DNA from: Euglena gracilis
Taxonomy: Eukaryota
DNA length: 64,000 nt
Direction: 5' to 3'
Assembly (NCBI GenBank): GCA_039621445.1
Contig: CP154954.1
Span: forward strand, 11,650,716 to 11,714,715
In this document: in pieces, positions 42,440 through 64,000 of the stretch
How the letters are laid out: each line of letters starts with the position of its first letter
How positions within the stretch are numbered: the first letter of the stretch is position 1
The notes under the pieces: generated by a model
Databases searched by the model: none
Told to the model about the DNA's origin: nothing
Seen by the model: only the letters and a program-made list of their open reading frames with translations
Position numbers and translations under genes: made by a program

Positions 42440-48780
<6,341 letters not shown>

Positions 48781-53286: not shown

Positions 53287-53748
53287 CAGGGGATTTCTTA
53301 AGGACCCCCAGGGGGGTAGGGGGGGGAGGGGAGGGTAGGGGGGGGGGAGGGGGGGGGGTCCGGGGCTGGAGGGGGACTGGGCTGGGCTGGGTCGGTGAAA
53401 AACAAAATCTTCTAAAAAATTTGTCAATTTCGACATTTTGGTGGATGGAGCTAGATCAAGGCTGGGGGGCTGTGATGGAGCAAGCTGTGGTGAGGGGGGA
53501 AAAAATGCACGGATAGGTGACCTGGGCAGTCCAGTTGGCTGGCCAGCCTGCGACCGGCTGGCTCTGCCTTCGGCCGGCTGGCCCGGCCTCCGGCCGGGCT
53601 GGACCCGACTTTACTTCACTCGACCCCCCCCCCCGGGGGGGGCTCCCAGCCTGAATTTGGGCCGCTGGCTGGATTTGAGCTGCTGGCTGGCTGGACCCCC
53701 CCCCGGGGGGGGGAGGGTAGGGTACCCTCCGGCTTAAGAAATCCTCTG
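53287..53748. mobile_element. hAT-like MITE, family C
   Basis: TIR caggggatttcttaag / cttaagaaatcctctg (15/16); TSD aaagtgag/aatgtgag (7/8). Confidence 0.85.
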
Positions 53749-54000: not shown

Positions 54001-56168
54001 TCACAGCGGCCCCAGGGCCTCCTCCCGGACGCTGCGGACCCGCCGCCAGTACGGCGTGTCCAGCGTCAGGAACCGCCGCAGCGTGGCCGGGGGCACGGCG
54101 TGGGACCGGGTCGGGGGGCCCGGCCCCCGCTGCGCGGCGACGGCCCGCACCTCGAAGCCCCGCCAGTGCCGGCCGCGGAAGGTGGCGTCGGGGACGCGGC
54201 CTGGGGGCACTGGTGGGCGGGAGGCTGATCCGTTGCGGGGCCTCCCCCGGAAGAAAGCAGGTTCCGGCCTGGGGGGTCATTCCTGGGGCTGGGCCAAATG
54301 GGCGCCGGCCCAAATTGATGGGCCGGCAATGCAGGTGACAACAAGGGGGGGGAAGCACCCGCCCCACCCTCAAAAAAAACACAATCCAAAATACAGTTTA
54401 TTCGGGAACCATTTTTTGCACCGTTTTTTTAATCCTTTTTGTGGATTTTTTTTTCAATCTTTTGGATTAGGGGTTGATAGTTTGATATTTTGAGACTGCA
54501 ATCTATTCAAAATTACCTGAACGGTAGAGCATTCACTCTTTTTTCGGACGTCATTTGCTTAGGACGTTATTTTTTTTATCTTTTCCAGACTTTATTCCTC
54601 CACTTACCAATTCTGTTTCCCCGTTTCCCCAGTTTTCAGTGCTTTGATGACACCTGTGAAATCGACATCCTTGGTCAGGTGCAACATATCCCAAGGTACG
54701 TGGCAATGCCCACAGTTTACAATCGCGGATAAAGGGCTCGTTCATCACACCAAGGTCTCTGTCAAGCAGCGCTTGCCGTTTGTTGACCTCCAGTGGAAAG
54801 ACGGTTCAAAACTTGAAACCGGCAATGTTCTCATGGCGAGCAGGCTGAATTTGATCAACCCCCTGGAAGGGGTGCCCTAAGGGGGGGATGCCTGCTGGTT
54901 GTAGGCCAAAAAGTAAGTCCCACCCAAATCATATACCCCCCCCCCGAAATGATATGAATAATATAATAATATGAGTCCGGACAAAAAAGGCGGGAAAAAT
55001 GAAGGGGAAAATGAAGGAAAATTTAGACTTTGAAAAAAACAACAATGGGGATTCACGGAAAATGGTGGTAATTTTCCCACTTGCTTCAAAAATTTTCGGC
55101 AGAAAAAGCAGCTCAGAATTCCAAAAAAAAAAATGATGTCGAAATGTTTTTCTGGGTTTTTTCTTTTTGTGGTTTTCCAATAAAAAATTCAACCCCTAAA
55201 ATAAACCATATGTCACATCCCTGTCCTTCTGTGTGTGAAAGTCAACCACCAGTGAACGTGGTTCCTCCAAAAGGGCTAAAAAAATTACGGGGAAAAATGA
55301 TGGGAAAAACTGAGTGGTTTTCCATCATTTTTGTTTTCCGTCATTTTGTCGAGACTGTGCCCCCAATACCGCCCCCTGGCCCGGGACTTCGGCTGCCCAA
55401 AAATAATATACCCCCCTGCCACACCCAAGAAAGGAAATCCAGCATGGCATAAGCTTGAATTTCTTTCCAAAAAAAACAGCATATTTTGGTTAAAAAATAT
55501 CTGGTACCAAAAGGGCAGTAAAATAAAATGAAAAATGCGCAAAAGTCAGAAATTACGTAAAAATGTGCTTTTTGGATGGTCTTTTGGAGTTTGAAAAATT
55601 GGGTTGTGCCTGCGGTGCCGAAGTGCCTTGGTCAAGTGCCCAGGCACTTTGGCCATGTGCCCCCCTGGGGGGTCGGATCTAGGTGCCTTGGAGTGCCTGC
55701 CCAGGTAGCCACCCCCCCCCCCCCGGGGTGGAGTCGGCACCGCTGGATATTATCGCGTAAAATTCAGCCTGATAGTGGTCAGCAAGCCTCGCGAACGATG
55801 AAACAAACATCGAACAAACAACTGAACCCTTTTTGAAGAATCAGACCGGAAATGAAATCTTAGACATAAAAGCCATCTCGGCCTATTGAGGGGGGGTACG
55901 CACAAGGTTGACACTCAATGGCGCTTATTGCAAACGCAGCCTGGTCCCACTGCTGGGGGTACTTCCCGACAAACCAGTTGCCACTGGCGACGCGCGGGAA
56001 GCCGAAGACCTCTTTCGGGTGGAAAATGGCGGCGAGGTACGATGCGTACAGCTGGGAGGCCCACCAGCTGAAGTGGTCCATCCCATCGTAGTACGGCGCA
56101 GCCGGGCTGGGCAAAGGCTTGGGTGTGGGGGTCGTCCAAACATATGTGGCTCAATGAGCGCGTAAATG

Positions 56169-56249
<81 letters not shown>

Positions 56250-59200
56250 GTGTGTGTGTGTGTGTGCGTCTGTCTGTCTGTGGTTGTGTGTGTGTTTGTG
56301 TGTGTGCGTGTGTCTTGGGAGTAAATGCGAATTTGAGGAACCCGCAAATACAGGGTAAGACATCAGCATGGGTGGTTGGCACCACACACCACCAACCACC
56401 ACCAGCCACCCAGCCACCAACCCATCCCACCCACGCGCCCGCGCACACACGTGCGCGCACGTATGGACACACGCTTGCACCCCCACACCACACACCACAC
56501 ACGCGCGCGCACACACAACCCCTGAGAAATGCCCAGCACGAACAATACTAGGGAGTTGAAAAAGACGTCGTGATGGAATGCGTTCGCATAGGCGTGGAAG
56601 GCGGTGATTTGGAGCACCTCCGACTCATTGTGTGGGGGAAGGAATGGGTTTGGAGCATGGCACCAGCCTGGAGGTTCTGACACTGCAAAATCCTCCCATC
56701 CCTGTCAAGAACCAATGGGACAGACGGGAAGGTTATGTGGGTTCTCGAAAAAAATTACAACAAATAATACAACAAGGAAAAAAGAAAGCACATACTTATG
56801 CATATTCGGTTCTGACAATTAGGAAAACTGTCAAATTTGAATGCAGGGGACAACAGACTTTCATTTAGTGCGCCGTGGCGAAGTCTGCCGTGGCACAAAA
56901 AAAATTTCCGCAGCGCACGCGACGCACAAACAAATTTTTGCCACGGCACACCCGCGGTGCACCTGAAACGCTGCCGCGGCGCACCAACAACGCACCCGCG
57001 GCGCACCAGCGACGTTCCTGCAGCGCACCAATGACGTTCTCGCCGCACATTGTATGCACGCGGTGCTGCCGCGGCGCACGCGGCACACAAAAGAAATCTT
57101 CCGCGGCGCACGCGGTCACAAAATTTCCGGTGCCGCGGCGCACACGGCGCAGAAGAAAAAATTTTCCGCGGCGCACTGAATGAAAGTCTGGGCAACAACC
57201 TTTCTGAAAAAGTGAAAATGTTATATTAAACAGTGTATAACAACAATGACTTGAAATCCTTCCCAGCAGCCTAAGAAAAAAAAAACACCACCAAACAAAA
57301 CAACAAATAACTGGAAACCCACCACAAACCTAAAATGGACCAATAATTGCATGCACCTTGAAATTTGTGTGAAAAAATGGTTCATTGCACGAATATCAAG
57401 GAATGCCACAGGCAGAGAATTTCTTAAGGACCCCCCGGGGGATCCAGCCTCGGCTGGCAAAAAGGCTGCTGGCTGGAAACGAGCTGCTTGGCTGGACCCC
57501 CCCAGAGTGATTGGGGGGAGGGGCGGGTCTGGGGCTGGAGGGGGCTGGGCTGGGCTGGGCTGGGCTGGACCGATGAAAAACAAAATTTTCTAAAAGATTT
57601 TTGCCTACTCAATGCTAGAACCAGGACTGGAGGAACAGCCTACTTACTGCCACACATTCTTATGCACATGTGATGAGGAAAAAAAATGCAGGGATAGGTG
57701 TGCTGGTAGCCTAGTTGGCTGGCCCGGCCTGCGGCCGGCTGGCCCGGCCTCCGGCCGGGCTGGACCCGACTTTACTTCACTCGACCCCCCCCGGGGGGGG
57801 GGCTCCCAGCCCGAATTCGGGCTGCTGGCTGGATTTGAGCTGCTGGCTGGCTGGACCCCCCCGGAGGGGGGGGGGGTGCCCTCCGGCTTAAGAAATTCCC
57901 TGCCACAGGAATGCCACAGGAATGTCACAAGAATGTCACAGGAAGGTCACACGTGACCTACCCGACCCTCCCAGCAGCGGCCATGGTGGTACTTGGGCTG
58001 CGGCTCCTGGAACCCCAATGGCGGGCCGATAGCAGGCATGTGCCTGAAGGTGCTAAAAGGCGCTTCAAAATGTTCAATGCAAGAAGAAACACCCCTGAGG
58101 CGGCAAGGCGCAAGGCGTCGTCGGGGGTGTGGGGCGTTGAAAACAGAAAAGAACGCGTCAAATGTGAAATTGAGGGGAAATATCCCTGCATCGCACCAGT
58201 CAGCCAGCACTTGGCTACAAAAGAATGTTTGAGAAATGATGTGGAGTTGAGGCAAAGGACACAGGAAAGCATAGGCCTTTTTATTCAAATTTACATATTC
58301 AAAATTATGTTTATGTTTTTGTTTACATTGACATTTTATATGTACATTTATGTTTTTATGCATATTTTATGTGTATTTGTATTTATATTTTCTTTATATT
58401 CTATATTTATATTTATATTTATATTTATATTTATATTTATATTCATATTTATATTTATATTTATTTGTATATTTATTTTTATATTTATATTTATATTTAT
58501 ATTTACATTTACATTTATATATTATATTTATATTTATACTCATATTTATATTTATATTTGTATTTGTATTATATATTAATATACGGCAGGTCCAAACTAT
58601 ATGCCCCCCGGGGTCCATATAATTGGATCAGGGGGGTCGGGGAAAATTTTTGGATTATTGGTGGAATGGGTTTTCGTTTAGGAGTCAGGTGTAATTTAAG
58701 GCCGAACTTATAGACTAGTGTTAGGTGTACAAGTTAGGCCTAAAGTTAGGACAAAATCCTAACTTTATCCCTATTCCATCAATAACGCAAAAAAAAATTG
58801 GACCCTCCTGATCCAACTACATGCCCCCCCCCCCTCCGGAGGGCCATGTAGTTGGGACCTGCCATTTATATATGTATTCAATTCAATTCAATTTTTCATT
58901 CAAATATTCAAATTTATATTTATTCGAATTTTATATTTTTGTTGCTTTTAAATGTGAGTGTGTGACAACCACAGCACATGCCTGGGTGCCAGTGCAGCAA
59001 CAGTCGCTCGAAATCAGAGGTTCCAGAAATGGAAACATCGTCGTCGATGAAAACAACAGAGCCGCCCCACCATAAAGAAAGCTGATCTGTGAGCAAGTTG
59101 TGGATGCCAACTTGGTCTCCAACCAACAGTCATGATTCCTAAAACACTTAGATGAAAGTGCAGCAAACCCTCCTTGTGTCACACAGCAAAGATTCCGGGC

Positions 59201-60063
59201 AGCGATACATTCATTTGTTTTCGGGGAGGGGGGATTCATTAATTTCCTTTCCCACGTTCGATGAGAGGACATATTTTGGCGGAATCCGGTGGTTCTGAGA
59301 ACTTCAATCAGGAAGCGGGACGGCTGCGGTAATACTCGTACCGCCGCGGCAGCTTCACCGCCATCTGCCACAGGACGTTGCGCCCTGACGTCCACGTTGT
59401 GTTCGGCCGCACGGTGGCGGGCGTGCAACGCCGGTAAAACGGCACCACGATGTGTGGCGCAAGCTTTCTGACAGGCAAGGAAGTGGGAGGTTGGAAAGGA
59501 CTGGTATTGACATTTGTGCCCAAAAAGAGGTTGGCAGATGGAAACTTTGGAGTGGGAGAATGGATGCCCTGATGCCTATCATGCAAAATTGTCAGCAGCA
59601 GGAGGTCGTGGAAAGGGGTTACGCTCTGTTTTTGCCTGAGGCAACTTCAACCTTGGTTGAAAGCAGGTGGGGATATTCAGGAACCTCAAAAAAAGTTGTG
59701 TAGCAATGTAGCTTCATCGTGGGATAACCAGAATGAGCTTTTCTTTAAACTGATGCCAAAACCCTTGTAGGGGGGGGGGGTCAAGCCGGGACTCATCTCA
59801 TCCCCCATCCCCAATTGGCAAATCACTGGTTAATAATTCTCACGCCAGTCACGCCGGTGCACGCAGAAGGAGACCGGGCTGCCCCACGTGAGGCAGAGCG
59901 CGTCTCCGTTGTCGGAGTACCGCAACTGCTCCGCGAAGGTCCGGCCCTGGACAAGGTAGAGGAAGCGTGGGGGCTCGTCGTCCTTTGGCGGGTTGGCAGC
60001 AGAGGACGGTGGCCCCCCAACCACGGGTGGTCGGCCAGCGGCCGCCACCAAAGTTACCCACCC
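54001..60063 (-). CDS. DxD-motif (GT-A fold-like) putative glycosyltransferase, multi-exon
   Basis: Exons 60063-~59860, ~59413-59329, 59054-58988, 58027-57962, 56667-56544 and 56097-~55930 splice to FLYLVQGR...DALCLTWGS...RPNTTWTSGRNVLW...YEYYVFIDDDV...FERLLLHWRPAIGVP...ANAFHHDVFFNSLVLPYYDGMDHFSWWASQLY. Probable last exon ~54210-54001 ending in TGA; start codon not located. Confidence 0.7.
56098..56543 (-). other. Nonconventional intron (GT start, no AG end)
   Basis: GTT-CGTGCTGGGCA ... TGCCCAGCCCG-GCTGC: 10 of 11 pairs in the +4/-6 register; restores NSLV-L-PYY. Confidence 0.75.
56854..57190. mobile_element. hAT-like MITE with subterminal ccgcggcgca repeats
   Basis: 25-bp TIR cagactttcatttagtgcgccgtgg / ccgcggcgcactgaatgaaagtctg (23/25); TSD ggggacaa/ggcaacaa (6/8). 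Confidence 0.8.
57413..57902. mobile_element. hAT-like MITE, family C
   Basis: TIR cagagaatttcttaag / cttaagaaattccctg; flanking direct repeat ccacagg (7 bp visible); right arm nearly identical to the 53287 copy. Confidence 0.85.
58028..58987 (-). other. Nonconventional intron
   Basis: ACC-CAGGCATGTGC ... GCACATGCCTG-CTATC: perfect 11-bp stem (58033-58043 vs 58974-58984); removal gives LLHW-R-PAIGVP. Confidence 0.85.
58584..58864. mobile_element. Diverged member of the TTAGGG-type MITE family in an AT microsatellite
   Basis: cggcaggtccaaactatatg...catgtagttgggacctgcca; core tagtgttaggtgtacaagttaggcctaa...ccctattccatc shared with the other copies. Confidence 0.75.
59055..59328 (-). other. 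Nonconventional intron lacking CAG/CTG at the usual positions
   Basis: CGC-AGCCGTCCC ... GGGGCGGCT-CTGTT: 9-bp stem in the +4/-6 register; restores YEYY-VFIDDD. Confidence 0.75.
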
Positions 60064-61189
60064 CTGGAGCACTGGGGGGGGGGGGGGCACTTTTGGGGGC
60101 CGCTTTTCGGGTCCGAAAAAAAAAACGGGACTTTCACGAACACCGTTTTTTTTTGCGCAAATGCACAAAGGAACAGGCCAACTGCGTGTTGAGTGTGAGT
60201 TTGGCTGCTTGAGTTTGACGTGGTGCACGCGTCACACCAAAACGCGTACAGCAGGGGCAGACGAAGAAATCCCCTCCTCCGGAGCGTCACCAACCTTTAA
60301 AAGCTGTTGGTCGGGCAATTGGTCTTTCAAAAAAAGGGAAGCCTAAAGACAGATAGGAATTCGGAGCTGTTCAAGAACGTCACGGAGTTGTGCACTTAAA
60401 AGCGTCACGGAGTCATGCAGTTGTGCACTTAAAAAACGAAAAGGGCATACCCGATGCATCCTGACACACTTCTTTACACTTTTTTGGTTAACTCGCTCCT
60501 TTGCAGACGCTTCTTTTCCATGCTCAATCTTCTCTAAGAAGCCCCCACTGTGAAGGCCTCAGGGTGCACTCGCGTAATTGACCATTCAAGTGGTTATAGC
60601 GGACTGCCGCCTCCGGCAGCGGGAAGTGCGCTTCTATTTGGACTCCACCTGGGCGATTTTGTTGATTTCCTTGAGAAATCCCTTCAATTGGGGGGTGCGC
60701 TTGTATCAGGCCGCCGCCTTTGGTGGCTGGGGGACCTTGTGCTTGTCGCGGCCCCGCGCTTTTGTGGGGGATTATTCCTATTGCTGTGTGGTATGGTGCC
60801 GGGCATCCTTTCCACAAACATTTCTGTCTGCCCCGAGTGGTCCTAGGCGCACCCGTGCTTCTATTGGGGGGGGGGGGGGCAGGAGAGATAATATCACAAT
60901 TACACCACATGTTCCGGCTCCGAGCAGGCTGGCACAGGAGGCTTTAAAGTGGATCCTTTTGCAAATGTGCAAAGCAACATCGCTTTTCCTCCCATGCGGG
61001 TACAACGGGGTCTCAACGTAATTGGGGTGATGCGGCCAAGGTCAACTGGTGGAAGCCCTCCGGTGCTCGATTTTTCTTTTTTTTCAGAATTCCCTGACTG
61101 TCTGATTTAATTGCAAAACACACTCCCTCCACCTCCGGAAAGTGTGACGGGTGAGCTTCTGGCAGTGACCAAACAAGGGCCCGACCCGC

Positions 61190-62700
61190 CTCCCCTCGCA
61201 GGCCGCCCCCTGGCCCCAGTTGTTGCACTTGCGTTCGCTCTGGCCCCCAACGATGGCCAGGGGCATTGAGGGGCGGTACTGCCGGACGAAGCCCGGGGCC
61301 AGGGCGGGGGCTTTGAGGGTGGGCGAAAGGAAATCCAAATGAACACCAGGCCACGCCGCCAGGCTTTTGCTTAAGGACCCCGGGGGGGGGGGGGTACTGG
61401 CCTGCCAATCGGCTAGACACTGGAAAAAATGGACCAGCTAGCCCCCCCCCCCCCCGGGGGGGGGGGGTGGGTCCGGGGGTCCCCCCCCATCTGGAAAAAA
61501 ATTTTCCTCCGGCGCTGCGCGCCGAGGTGGAAATGAGGTTTTCAATAGGTTTTTGGCTGATTTTGTTCCAGAAATTCCCAAAATGGCCAAAAACGGGCTT
61601 TTTTGGCCATTTTTGGGGGTCCCAAAAAATTTCCGTGACGCCGCGGCCGAGATTGGAGATATGACACAGGTTTGATCCCTGGGCTGCAGATTGGTGTCTT
61701 TTCCCACAGCACAAAAAGCAAATTTTTGAGGTCAGGAGCCTGACAGGAATGGTTGTAATTCCGTTGCACTTCAGATAATTCAATATTCAACAAAAAAAAG
61801 TGTGACAACCTCAAAAAGAAAGACAGGTCCCTTAGAGGACAGGTTAGAGAATGCGACGAGGGGCAGAGGGGGCAGAGGAGGACAATTTCCTGGGAGGTTG
61901 GATTTTTCGATGGCCGAACAGCAAGACTGTCACCAACAGCACAGCAAGATCCATTCCCAATGTCGTGCTGCGTCGCATTCGTGGTGCGTTGCACCTCCCT
62001 GCGCACCATCGTGTCCTCGAATGCCACAATGACGGCCGCGTTGAGGAGCAGGTTGAAGGAGATGATGGTCACAGGAGGGCGAGACCACCAACACACCAAA
62101 GCTCCATTTGCCTTCGTCTTTCCCACCATCAGAATACTCCACAACGTTGCATTGCCGGGATGGAAGACAGCGTTGCTAATGGCAGCCCCCTCCGGCTGGT
62201 TGACCAATTTGAGGTTTTGCGGGCAACACTGGGCTACATGATGGAATTGAGGGGAAAAGCAAAAATCCAACTTTTGAAGGCTAAACGAGCACGAAGGCAA
62301 TCAAACGGAGTTGCAGTGTTTGGTGGTGGATGGTTTTTTCTCTTTGAAGATTCATTGGATCGGCACCCAACCGCACACCCCTGGGGGTGGAGGGACTCAA
62401 TATTGGTGGTGGGGGTCATTTTGGACCCAAATGATACGACACACAACAAAACTTTGGCACTTCGTTGCGAAGGTGGGAGGGGAGCCCAAAAATGTCTGGA
62501 AATACTCACATCCCCGAATGGGGATTGGTCGGTATGCTTGGAAAGAGCCCGAGAGCCTGCGTTGAACCACCCTCGGGGCCTCCCCTGGCACAATGCCCAG
62601 GTCCAGAGCTTTGCTGCGGAACGTCACCAAGTTCAGGGACCGGTAGAGCAGGTTGAAGCAGGCGGTGAGGTGGCCCCATGCCGCTGTTTGCCCAATGGGG
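61190..62700 (-). CDS. Minus-strand exon cluster, possibly a membrane protein; unknown
   Basis: GC3-rich blocks ~62690-62570 (WGHLTACFNLLYRSLNLVTFRSKALDLGIV), ~62065-61995 (IISFNLLLNAAVIVAFEDTMVRRE|GT), ~61330-61190; junctions unresolved. Confidence 0.4.
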
Positions 62701-64000
62701 AGATGGTGCTTGGACAAGGGGTCCGGATGACTTTTAAAATTTGCGTGCAAATTCTGGATTTGAGTGCTAATCCAGGTATTTGTGTGCAAATCTAGAAATT
62801 TGCACGCGCTTATGCACAAATTTACGCGCGAAATATGCACAAACTTACTCGTTTTTGAGGATGCACACACAACAAATATCACAAAGTCGCAAAATTTTCT
62901 GCAGCATTTAGCTCGTCGAGATTTAGTGACTTCAAAATTTGTACTTGCTTTATCAGGCAAGAGAAAATGCTTCCTGGAAGATGACCTTAAAAAGATGGGT
63001 GCCTAGACAAGGTTGGTGATTAATCAGAAAGGGGGATGTTGCAGGTGATTCAAAAAATACACATTTCTCCTATTTTAGCTTCCACTTTTGCACTTCCAGG
63101 CAACCCGGACGGGAGTTGTGGGCACCTCCCTGACAACCCAAGCAGCGCCATGGGTATGCGACCCCATTGTAGTCGATGCGGCTCTCGGGGGGGTTTGGCC
63201 ACTCCGTGGAGAGGAACACGAGGGCGGGCATTCGCAGAAGGGGGGAGGGGGGTCACTTTCCACTCTGAAAAAACCAGTCAGTCACTTTTTCCGAAAAACC
63301 CAGTCAGTCACTTTACCCCCCCCCCCCGGGGGGGATCGGCCACTCTTCAGGAGGTAATGAAATTTTCCCAAAAAATGTCAAAAAATCCAAAAAAAATTTC
63401 CGGCGCCTTCGGCGCCAGGCCAGCCACTTTTCCATTTTCGGGCCTACCCCACCCCGGGGGGGGGGGGGGTTCTTGGCCAGAAAACCAGTCAGTCACCCCC
63501 CCGGGGGTGGGGTAGGACAGGTGATAAGCAATGGTATGGGGAGGACACACACAAAGACGGCAGAGCAGCCCCAAATGCACACCCACCAGGAAAATGCCAC
63601 CTGACAGGCGGGCCAGAACCGCAGGCCTTGCAGTTTCTCTTGCATGGCCCCCACAGGGCAGTCCAAAAGATTATCACCCCTGGCAGCTACGCGTTGTCAG
63701 GGAAAGTGGTCTCTGACAAATTCCAAGCACAGGAGTAAAGGAGCTTATGAGCTTGGGGGGGGGGGGGTAGATTGCCGTGCTGGATTCCCCCTCCTTGTTT
63801 GGCTCGGGTTGAATCGACAACGGGGGCCAACTGTGGGGGGACACACATGGTACAGGGTCAAGCCAGGACACCCACCCGTCGTGTCCAACAAACGCTTAGG
63901 TGACAAAATTTGTGGTCTGAACAAGGGGTATACATTGTGAGTGGGTGAGGGTGGAGGTAAGGAGTGGGGAGGATAAACACTGAGACATGAGGTTCTAATT

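Follow-up and report, generated by a model that had tools for sequence, protein, structure and literature searches.

The minus strand of a 64,000-nucleotide stretch of Euglena gracilis DNA (NCBI GenBank assembly GCA_039621445.1, contig CP154954.1, positions 11,650,716 to 11,714,715 of the forward strand; hereafter the window, with positions counted from its first letter) carries part of a gene for a putative glycosyltransferase whose coding sequence is interrupted by introns. An earlier, sequence-only reading had proposed three of these introns, at 59328-59055, 58987-58028 and 56543-56098, on account of their paired ends and of the protein motifs that appeared once they were removed. We found that the three intervals are present in DNA and precisely absent from RNA, that they lack conventional borders, that their ends hold a helix in register and that the frame left after their removal is collinear with homologues. 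They are almost certainly ordinary nonconventional nuclear introns of a Euglena-like euglenid, with ends that pair and with cuts placed at fixed distances from the helix so formed.

The search for sequencing runs used window positions 55800-60100, and the runs were mapped to positions 55000-64000. Two of them, X1 and X2, are sets of transcript-like contigs from two studies. A third, X21, consists of raw reads recorded as RNA-seq, of which about 5% of the run was read. The fourth, X20, has 82% of words at an even depth of about 40-50 and was therefore treated as a DNA-like run. Joints seen in RNA are written as the two flanking exon bases on the plus strand, the gene itself lying on the minus strand, and those considered are the best-supported 15 of 271. 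The alternative border positions that are compatible with an RNA joint are referred to as slides.

Joints were recovered at exactly the coordinates proposed for all three introns, the third with a 1-nt slide. Joint 59054>59329 skips 274 nt with slide 0 and was supported by 5+4 X21 reads (9 in total), joint 58027>58988 skips 960 nt with slide 1 (10+7, 17 in total) and joint 56096>56543 skips 446 nt (9+16, 25 in total). Each was also carried by one X1 contig (depth 132) and one X2 contig (depth 21.1). No contig of the DNA-like X20 contained any of the three joints; the exon-intron borders were bridged by X20 contigs instead. The same pattern extends to nine joints of the gene, each of which was found in X1, X2 and the raw RNA-seq of X21, with 0 X20 contigs containing them. 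Read depth in X21 was 0-0.08 in repeat-free intron bins (56204-56504, 58311-58611 and 60117-60417) and about 3-7 in exon-bearing bins, which indicates near-complete removal of the introns in steady-state RNA.

The script-joined exons form a frame that is open for 369 codons, with stops in both other frames, and contain all three motifs named in the earlier reading (YEYYVFIDDD, HWRPAIGVP and LVLPYYDG). A search with one 51-residue exon matched a single longer protein, P0001 (754 residues), and the spliced product is identical to residues 386-754 of this protein at 309 of 369 positions (84%). The alignment contains a lone 1-residue gap, located inside the last exon, and none at any junction. The name of P0001 bears the prefix GGOE01, which is the Euglena longa transcript prefix in bioRxiv 10.1101/573709; the window thus comes from a close relative of E. 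longa, in agreement with the euglenid host that had been suggested. An exhaustive HMMER search with P0001 returned 490 proteins at E<=0.001, 176 at <=1e-10 and 16 at <=1e-30, and most matches were stand-alone proteins of about 250-300 residues covering query residues ~490-750. We aligned the C-terminal part of the window protein with 30 of 150 listed hits, chosen for coverage, and with the C-terminal parts of P0001 and a further homologue, P0002. The three joins fall inside the best-conserved blocks, Y-x-Y-Y-I-F-x-D-D-D, P-A-x-x-x-P and L-P-Y-x-x-x-F-D-x-x-S-W-W, and the spliced protein shows neither gap nor insertion at any of them, which was the check that the earlier reading had suggested. 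A 2-residue deletion just ahead of the last block is present in 5 of the 32 alignment rows and absent from the window protein.

Intron ends and the published splicing code

Eleven introns of the gene lie in the window, numbered here from 1 to 11 in the order of transcription, with the three predicted ones as introns 6, 7 and 9. Nine are taken from the RNA joints, the tenth from a loose end and the eleventh from homology. GT-AG, GC-AG or AT-AC borders were found in 0 of the 11 over all RNA-compatible slides (1-5 per intron), so the non-GT-AG borders claimed for the three predicted introns hold at every slide. The in-register helix starts at +4/-6 or -7 and has strict lengths of 4, 4, 5, 10, 3, 12, 12, 5, 2, 5 and 3 pairs. 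The pair counts reported earlier were reproduced, with 9 pairs including one G.U for 59328-59055, 11 Watson-Crick pairs for 58987-58028 and 10/11 for 56543-56098.

In order to judge these helices we compared them with mismatched 5'/3' partners and with random sites. At least 9 strict in-register pairs were present in 3 of 11 introns, as opposed to 0 of 110 mismatched partners and 0.7% of 20,000 random site pairs. When one mismatch was allowed, at least 9 pairs were present in 7 of 11 introns, as opposed to 1 of 110 mismatched partners and 2.6% of the 20,000 random pairs. At least 3 strict pairs were found in 10 of 11 introns, but 57 of 110 mismatched partners and 41% of the random pairs had as many; helices of this length are common by chance, and those of introns 5 and 11 are therefore not individually significant. 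Hairpin energies (20+U7+20 nt) were -21.9, -22.6 and -17.3 kcal/mol for introns 59328-59055, 58987-58028 and 56543-56098, and among 3000 random site pairs of the window, 0.30%, 0.23% and 1.7%, respectively, attained these values. The terminal pairing of the three predicted introns exceeds chance. The mean terminal hairpin energy was -17.3 kcal/mol when an intron was folded with its own ends, whereas mismatched partners averaged -12.4 and random sites -7.2; the advantage of mismatched partners over random sites is to be expected if complementary motifs are common to all ends.

The geometry around the helix was uniform. All 11 introns have an RNA-compatible slide that gives the N3/N5 spacing, and the RNAfold structures of introns 6 and 7 leave 3 and 5 nt unpaired. 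A purine stands at the downstream exon start in 11 of 11 introns at the best in-register slide, and it is a G for each of the three predicted introns. Short direct repeats of 1-4 nt were found at the junctions of 8 introns, while the remaining three have none (slide 0).

These properties can be set against a published code. Knock-in genetics in PMC12501133 yielded the signature 5'-N3CDG-/-CH'GN5-6|R for nonconventional introns, and single-base changes in the CDG/CH'G triplets abolish splicing in that assay. According to the same source, 71.8% of E. agilis introns are nonconventional and the signature is found in 61.2% of those. For E. gracilis, PMC11170887 reports 16,151 of 28,337 introns as nonconventional (57%) and shows terminal pairing. 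The introns described here share with the Euglena nonconventional introns of PMC12501133, PMC11170887 and PMC3935182 the non-GT-AG borders, a helix running inwards from +4..+6/-8..-6, the 3-/5-nt spacers, the acceptor-exon purine, slidable short repeats, a length of a few hundred to >1000 nt and a euglenid host. The class proposed earlier, euglenid-type nonconventional introns, is thus upheld by the non-GT-AG borders, the terminal helix in the published +4/-6 register and the precise removal in RNA. As a trait of euglenids only it did not stand, since diplonemids have such introns too (PMC6221363).

The difference from the Euglena code lies in the triplets. Only 4 of the 11 introns (3, 4, 7 and the predicted intron 11) carry the full CDG/CH'G code, and these include one of the three first predicted. 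Intron 10 departs from the code only in that the exon after it begins with a pyrimidine. The rest hold the register with other triplets, which are complementary in introns 1 (CAT/ATG), 2 (GGG/CTC), 5 (GTG/CAC), 6 (AGC/GCT) and 8 (ATG/CAT) and include a mismatch in intron 9 (CGT/CCG). Intron 6 (59055-59328, 274 nt, CG..TT, no slide) has 3- and 5-nt spacers, an exon that starts with G and a helix from +4 to -6 with AGC/GCT triplets and 12 pairs, 3 of them G.U. Intron 7 (58028-58987, 960 nt, AC..TC, 1-nt slide) presents the full signature, N3-CAG...CTG-N5 followed by an exon-start G, and a helix of 12 pairs of which 11 are Watson-Crick. Intron 9 (56098-56543, 446 nt) has borders GT..GC, or TT..CG at 56542-56097, with N5 ahead of an exon that starts with G; its in-register helix has 10/11 pairs with CGT/CCG and a U.C mismatch at +6/-8. 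The off-code introns belong to the 38.8% of nonconventional introns that fall outside the code of PMC12501133.

Several points weigh against reading these intervals as ordinary nonconventional introns cut by helix distance. Six of the 11 introns (7 if intron 10 is counted) miss the published code, including two of the three predicted introns, 59328-59055 (AGC/GCT) and 56543-56098 (CGT/CCG), which are without CDG/CH'G. Intron 5 has only 3 in-register pairs, a number reached by 41% of random sites, and intron 9 only 2 strict pairs before its mismatch. Regarding the data, X1 and X2 bear their label ("RNA?") by guess only, X21 is unstranded so that the strand of the RNA had to be deduced from the open reading frame, and X20 is possibly the sample behind the window's assembly and hence maybe no independent check. 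Finally, the evidence assembled here is silent on the cleavage chemistry, the enzyme and a circular product.

Proposed excision and alternative explanations

In the pre-mRNA, the ends of each intron would pair, the first pair linking +4 with -6 (counted from the 3' end). Such a helix would leave the donor side with 3 unpaired nt and the acceptor side with 5, and would bring the cut sites together. The transcript would be cut at fixed distances from the helix and the exons ligated, the downstream exon beginning with a purine. That the helix is what the machinery reads is suggested by the knock-in genetics of PMC12501133, and that the intron may leave as a circle comes from PMC11282704 citing Guminska 2021. 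The literature likewise suggests that the enzyme may be one other than the standard spliceosome. According to PMC11282704, nonconventional introns are released as circles after removal of conventional introns. No back-joint of the kind expected from a circular intron was present among the best 15 of 271 joints. PMC12501133 and PMC11282704 still call the excision machinery unknown, in line with the earlier reading.

Among artefact, polymorphism and spliceosomal removal, only the last stays open, and it bears on the enzyme alone, leaving the identity of the introns unaffected. Under this explanation, removal via non-canonical sites would be the work of the spliceosome or one of its variants, and the helix would merely juxtapose these sites with no separate machinery involved. 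In PMC11170887 both spliceosome-dependent and spliceosome-independent removal are considered possible and experiments to verify this are called for, hybrid introns are reported at 0.8% in PMC12501133, and introns 5 and 9 of the present gene begin with GT at one slide. We nevertheless regard this explanation as unlikely: an AG (or AC) 3' border is impossible in all 11 introns, the fixed 3-/5-nt helix distances and the exon-start purine (11/11) are no spliceosomal signals, and the excised products are full-length circles and not lariats according to PMC11282704.

A conventional neighbour had also been proposed, a probable canonical intron at 57961-56668, and here the RNA corrects the sequence-only reading. 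The joint at this place is 56650>57987, corresponding to an intron at 57986-56651. It skips 1336 nt with a slide of 3, was supported by 9+8 X21 reads (17 in total) and found in X1 and X2 and in 0 X20 contigs, and no slide yields GT-AG. The joint expected from the GT-AG version, 56667>57962, is absent from the best 15 of 271 joints. Since that version would lengthen the spliced product by 42 nt, in frame, and so add 14 residues, frame continuity was unable to expose the mis-prediction; the 14 extra residues were not found in the two closest homologues, P0001 and P0002. The claim that these introns coexist with a canonical one in the same gene is not supported either, given that all 11 introns inside the window are nonconventional, and a dual intron system is therefore not shown here. 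The GT-AG intron might instead serve as a minor alternative to 57986-56651 and give rise to an isoform with the 14 extra residues. GT and AG do stand at 57961/56668, the frame is kept and only 15 of the 271 joints were listed. Such an isoform is nonetheless improbable: its joint is missing even though joints with a single X21 read appear among those 15, both transcript contigs and 17 X21 reads use 56650>57987, and P0001 and P0002 have no insertion at the site.

Another GT-AG intron, placed by eye at about 59839-59467 with an exon through 59469-59406, was rejected, as RNA places the real intron at 59852-59406 (GT..GC). The last ~64 nt of this intron 5 (59406-59469, minus strand) have no stop in the frame of the downstream exon and look like protein-coding sequence. 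The stretch is intronic by RNA and by homologue P0001.

The two remaining explanations deny that these are introns. Reverse transcription artefacts, with template switching across a stable hairpin or short direct repeats, would find both stable terminal stems and 1-4 nt repeats at 8 of 11 junctions, but we give them hardly any credence, because the unspliced form is virtually absent from RNA reads in repeat-free intron bins, identical joints recur in three runs, each from a different study, repeats are lacking altogether in three introns, and the open frame is collinear both with a transcript protein that is its orthologue in another species and with more remote homologues. The segments might alternatively be mobile insertions resembling MITEs (miniature inverted-repeat transposable elements) that are missing from the expressed allele, the joints being DNA polymorphism; the ends do resemble terminal inverted repeats, the slides resemble target-site duplications and a transposon origin of nonconventional introns has been proposed (PMC11282704), but 0 X20 contigs contain the joints and X20 contigs at depth ~35-51 bridge the borders, which makes this account next to impossible. 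A transposon origin in evolution is compatible with nonconventional introns as the best explanation.

We also compared the introns with other known systems. Intermediate introns of euglenids (PMC4770533, PMC6221363) likewise combine a GT start with a terminal helix, as introns 5 and 9 do at one slide, but these two have neither AG nor any conventional 3' border at any slide and so do not amount to GT-AG or GC-AG introns to which a stem has been added. Diplonemid nonconventional introns (PMC6221363, PMC12621601) are of the same general kind, with non-canonical borders and paired ends, whereas protein identity marks the present host as a relative of Euglena. Bulge-helix-bulge introns, known from archaeal and eukaryotic tRNA, are alike in principle, with cut sites set by structure and a possible circular product. 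As a candidate they were rejected: the best helix between exon flanks does not surpass that of random sites (mean of 3.5 pairs vs 3.56, standard deviation 1.32). PMC6221363 describes a conformation unlike that of tRNA or self-splicing introns. Introners and MITE-like introns (PMC11282704) share the terminal inverted repeats and the border repeats resembling target-site duplications. Introners, however, are spliceosomal and GT-AG. The intron ends here are single-copy in X20 (depth ~40) and only nested elements are high-copy. A scan of the window with Rfam returned 0 matches at gathering thresholds.

Gene structure, encoded protein and repeats

The minus strand of the region has the look of a fragmented eukaryotic gene, with gaps that contain G/C-homopolymer palindromes and microsatellites. 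The 3' half of the gene for the putative two-domain glycosyltransferase occupies 54001-63219 and comprises 12 exons, with the stop codon at 54003-54001. Exons 1-6 of the window lie at 63219-63153, 62668-62589, 62069-62004, 61293-61216, 59994-59853 and 59405-59329, and exons 7-12 at 59054-58988, 58027-57987, 56650-56543, 56096-55943, 54753-54719 and 54195-54001 (including the stop), all on the minus strand. The window contains no match to the upstream loose end at 63219, which puts the 5' half of the gene beyond base 64000.

The other introns, also on the minus strand, vary in length and in helix. Intron 1 (62669-63152, 484 nt, 3-nt slide, joint 62668>63153) reads N3-CAT...ATG-N5 with an exon-start A at slide -3 and has 9/10 pairs. 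Intron 2 (62070-62588, 519 nt, joint 62069>62589) has a 4-nt slide that never gives GT-AG and a 4-pair in-register helix. Intron 3 (61294-62003, 710 nt, joint 61293>62004) presents the full signature at slide -1, N3-CAG...CTG-N5 with an exon-start G. Intron 4 (59995-61215, 1221 nt, GG..CC, no slide, joint 59994>61216) reads N3-CAG...CTG-N5 with an exon-start A and has a 10-pair helix. Intron 5 (59406-59852, 447 nt, joint 59405>59853) is GT..GC at slide 0 with a 4-nt slide, and its helix is weak, with 3 in-register pairs (GTG/CAC). Intron 8 (56651-57986, 1336 nt, 3-nt slide) reads N3-ATG...CAT-N5 with an exon-start A at slide -1 and has a 5-bp helix. Intron 10 (54754-55942, 1189 nt, 4-nt slide) can be read as CTG...CAG-N5 with an exon-start T (slide 0) or as CAG...TTG-N5 with an exon-start G (slide -4). 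It is based on a loose end at 55943 (X1 and 9 X21 reads) with 30 letters that occur once in the window, at 54724-54753. Intron 11 (54196-54718, 523 nt, AA..GC, no slide), the borders of which were placed by homology through the alignment to P0001 and not by RNA, is predicted to carry the full signature, N3-CTG...CAG-N5 with an exon-start G. If independence is assumed, the chance that all 11 introns are nonconventional is 0.57^11, or ~0.002, at the E. gracilis share of 57% and ~0.026 at the E. agilis share of 71.8%. Intron types may be clustered by gene.

On the two sides of the 78-nt exon 61216-61293, the 5' end of intron 4 (61187-61217) and the 3' end of intron 3 (61295-61325) are 77% complementary over 31 nt. 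This cross-pairing equals or surpasses in quality the terminal helix of intron 3 itself, and might either interfere with correct pairing or promote exon skipping. No joint skipping exon 61216-61293 is among the best 15 of 271. In addition, X1 includes contigs that are wholly intronic (55000-55381, 59484-59635, 60515-60673 and 62166-62482), at depth 2.8-7.1, while the spliced transcript has 132; pre-mRNA, intron RNA after excision and carried-over DNA are all conceivable sources.

Turning to the product, this gene would encode a putative glycosyltransferase with two domains and a type-II-membrane-like arrangement. The AlphaFold2 model of P0001 (alignment A1, 138 sequences) has a mean pLDDT (predicted local distance difference test) of 71.3, with values >90 from about residue 490. 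The best Foldseek matches in the PDB were the O-fucosyltransferases POFUT2 and POFUT1 (E 1.6e-9 and weaker, ~400 aligned columns), followed by weaker GT-A matches to MGAT2, the LH3 glycosyltransferase domain, K4CP, STIV A197 and GalNAc-T2 (E 7e-5 to 2e-3). The aligned lengths and the pLDDT profile, considered without query ranges, suggest that the N-terminal half has the POFUT-like fold and that the C-terminal D-D-D domain has the GT-A-like one. The D-D-D motif is conserved among the aligned homologues. For residues 486-754, the ESM Atlas pointed to DUF5672- and DUF707-like clusters, which serve as leads only. Pfam found 0 families in six single-exon translations; Pfam on P0001 and Pfam/NCBIfam on the homologues gave nothing above threshold, with sub-threshold noise only, and the profile of alignment A1 had 0 matches among PDB sequences at E up to 1. 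Of the two domains, the second is encoded in full within the window and the first only by its final part.

Some of the introns contain repeats. Intron 7 encloses a nested element (58571-58877) with inverted repeats of 42 nt that are 76% complementary, and intron 8 encloses two, at 57400-57915 (29 nt, 79%) and 56854-57190 (25 nt, 92% complementary). Summed X20 depth in bins with nested elements ranges from ~14,000 to 318,000 vs ~40 for unique sequence, which marks these elements as very high-copy MITE-like repeats that inflate introns 7 and 8. Intron 7 also contains an (ATAAAT)n-like tract of ~200 nt (~58380-58560, minus-strand reading), and intron 9 has long (GA)n and (CA)n tracts, reads at 56162-56318 being skipped as repeat. 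A segment of ~200 nt in intron 8 (57700-57900), as seen by eye on the minus strand, recurs 3' of the stop codon at 53560-53740. It contains cttaagccggaggg, G/C homopolymers and ccagccagccagcagctcaaatccagcc, and is probably of the same repeat family as the high-copy element described above. Elsewhere in the window, the plus strand has stop-free frames of up to 794 codons at 45876-48450, and the stretch 46001-48000 shows extreme strand skew (GC skew -0.62, AT skew -0.57). Rather than a gene, the region 45876-48450 most likely represents an extended low-complexity repeat. The open reading frames listed for the whole window were of no help in locating further genes.

Meaning for Euglena introns

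The nonconventional introns of Euglena are already known as the majority class, have been catalogued genome-wide and had their code dissected genetically in 2025. Being instances of the commonest and well-described Euglena intron type, the introns of this gene make for a finding that is correct but ordinary. What the analysis adds is, on the one hand, a prediction of three junctions from sequence only that proved base-exact against RNA and, on the other hand, a correction: an attractive GT...AG pair was the wrong call in this organism, and the introns in the visible part of the gene are all nonconventional.

One point stays mildly open: in this gene the majority of introns do without the published CAG/CTG-type triplets and are spliced nonetheless, with the geometry kept. 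We tentatively raise the possibility, itself rather doubtful, that the machinery acts as a structural ruler, measuring off 3 and 5 nt at the foot of whatever helix is stable enough. If this were true, CAG/CTG would be merely the commonest solution, perhaps needed only with a short helix, and the ruler could explain some of the 38.8% of nonconventional introns in Euglena to which the published code does not extend. In any case, natural and efficiently spliced introns that lack CAG/CTG and keep the canonical register are substrates for testing whether structure or sequence sets the cut sites.

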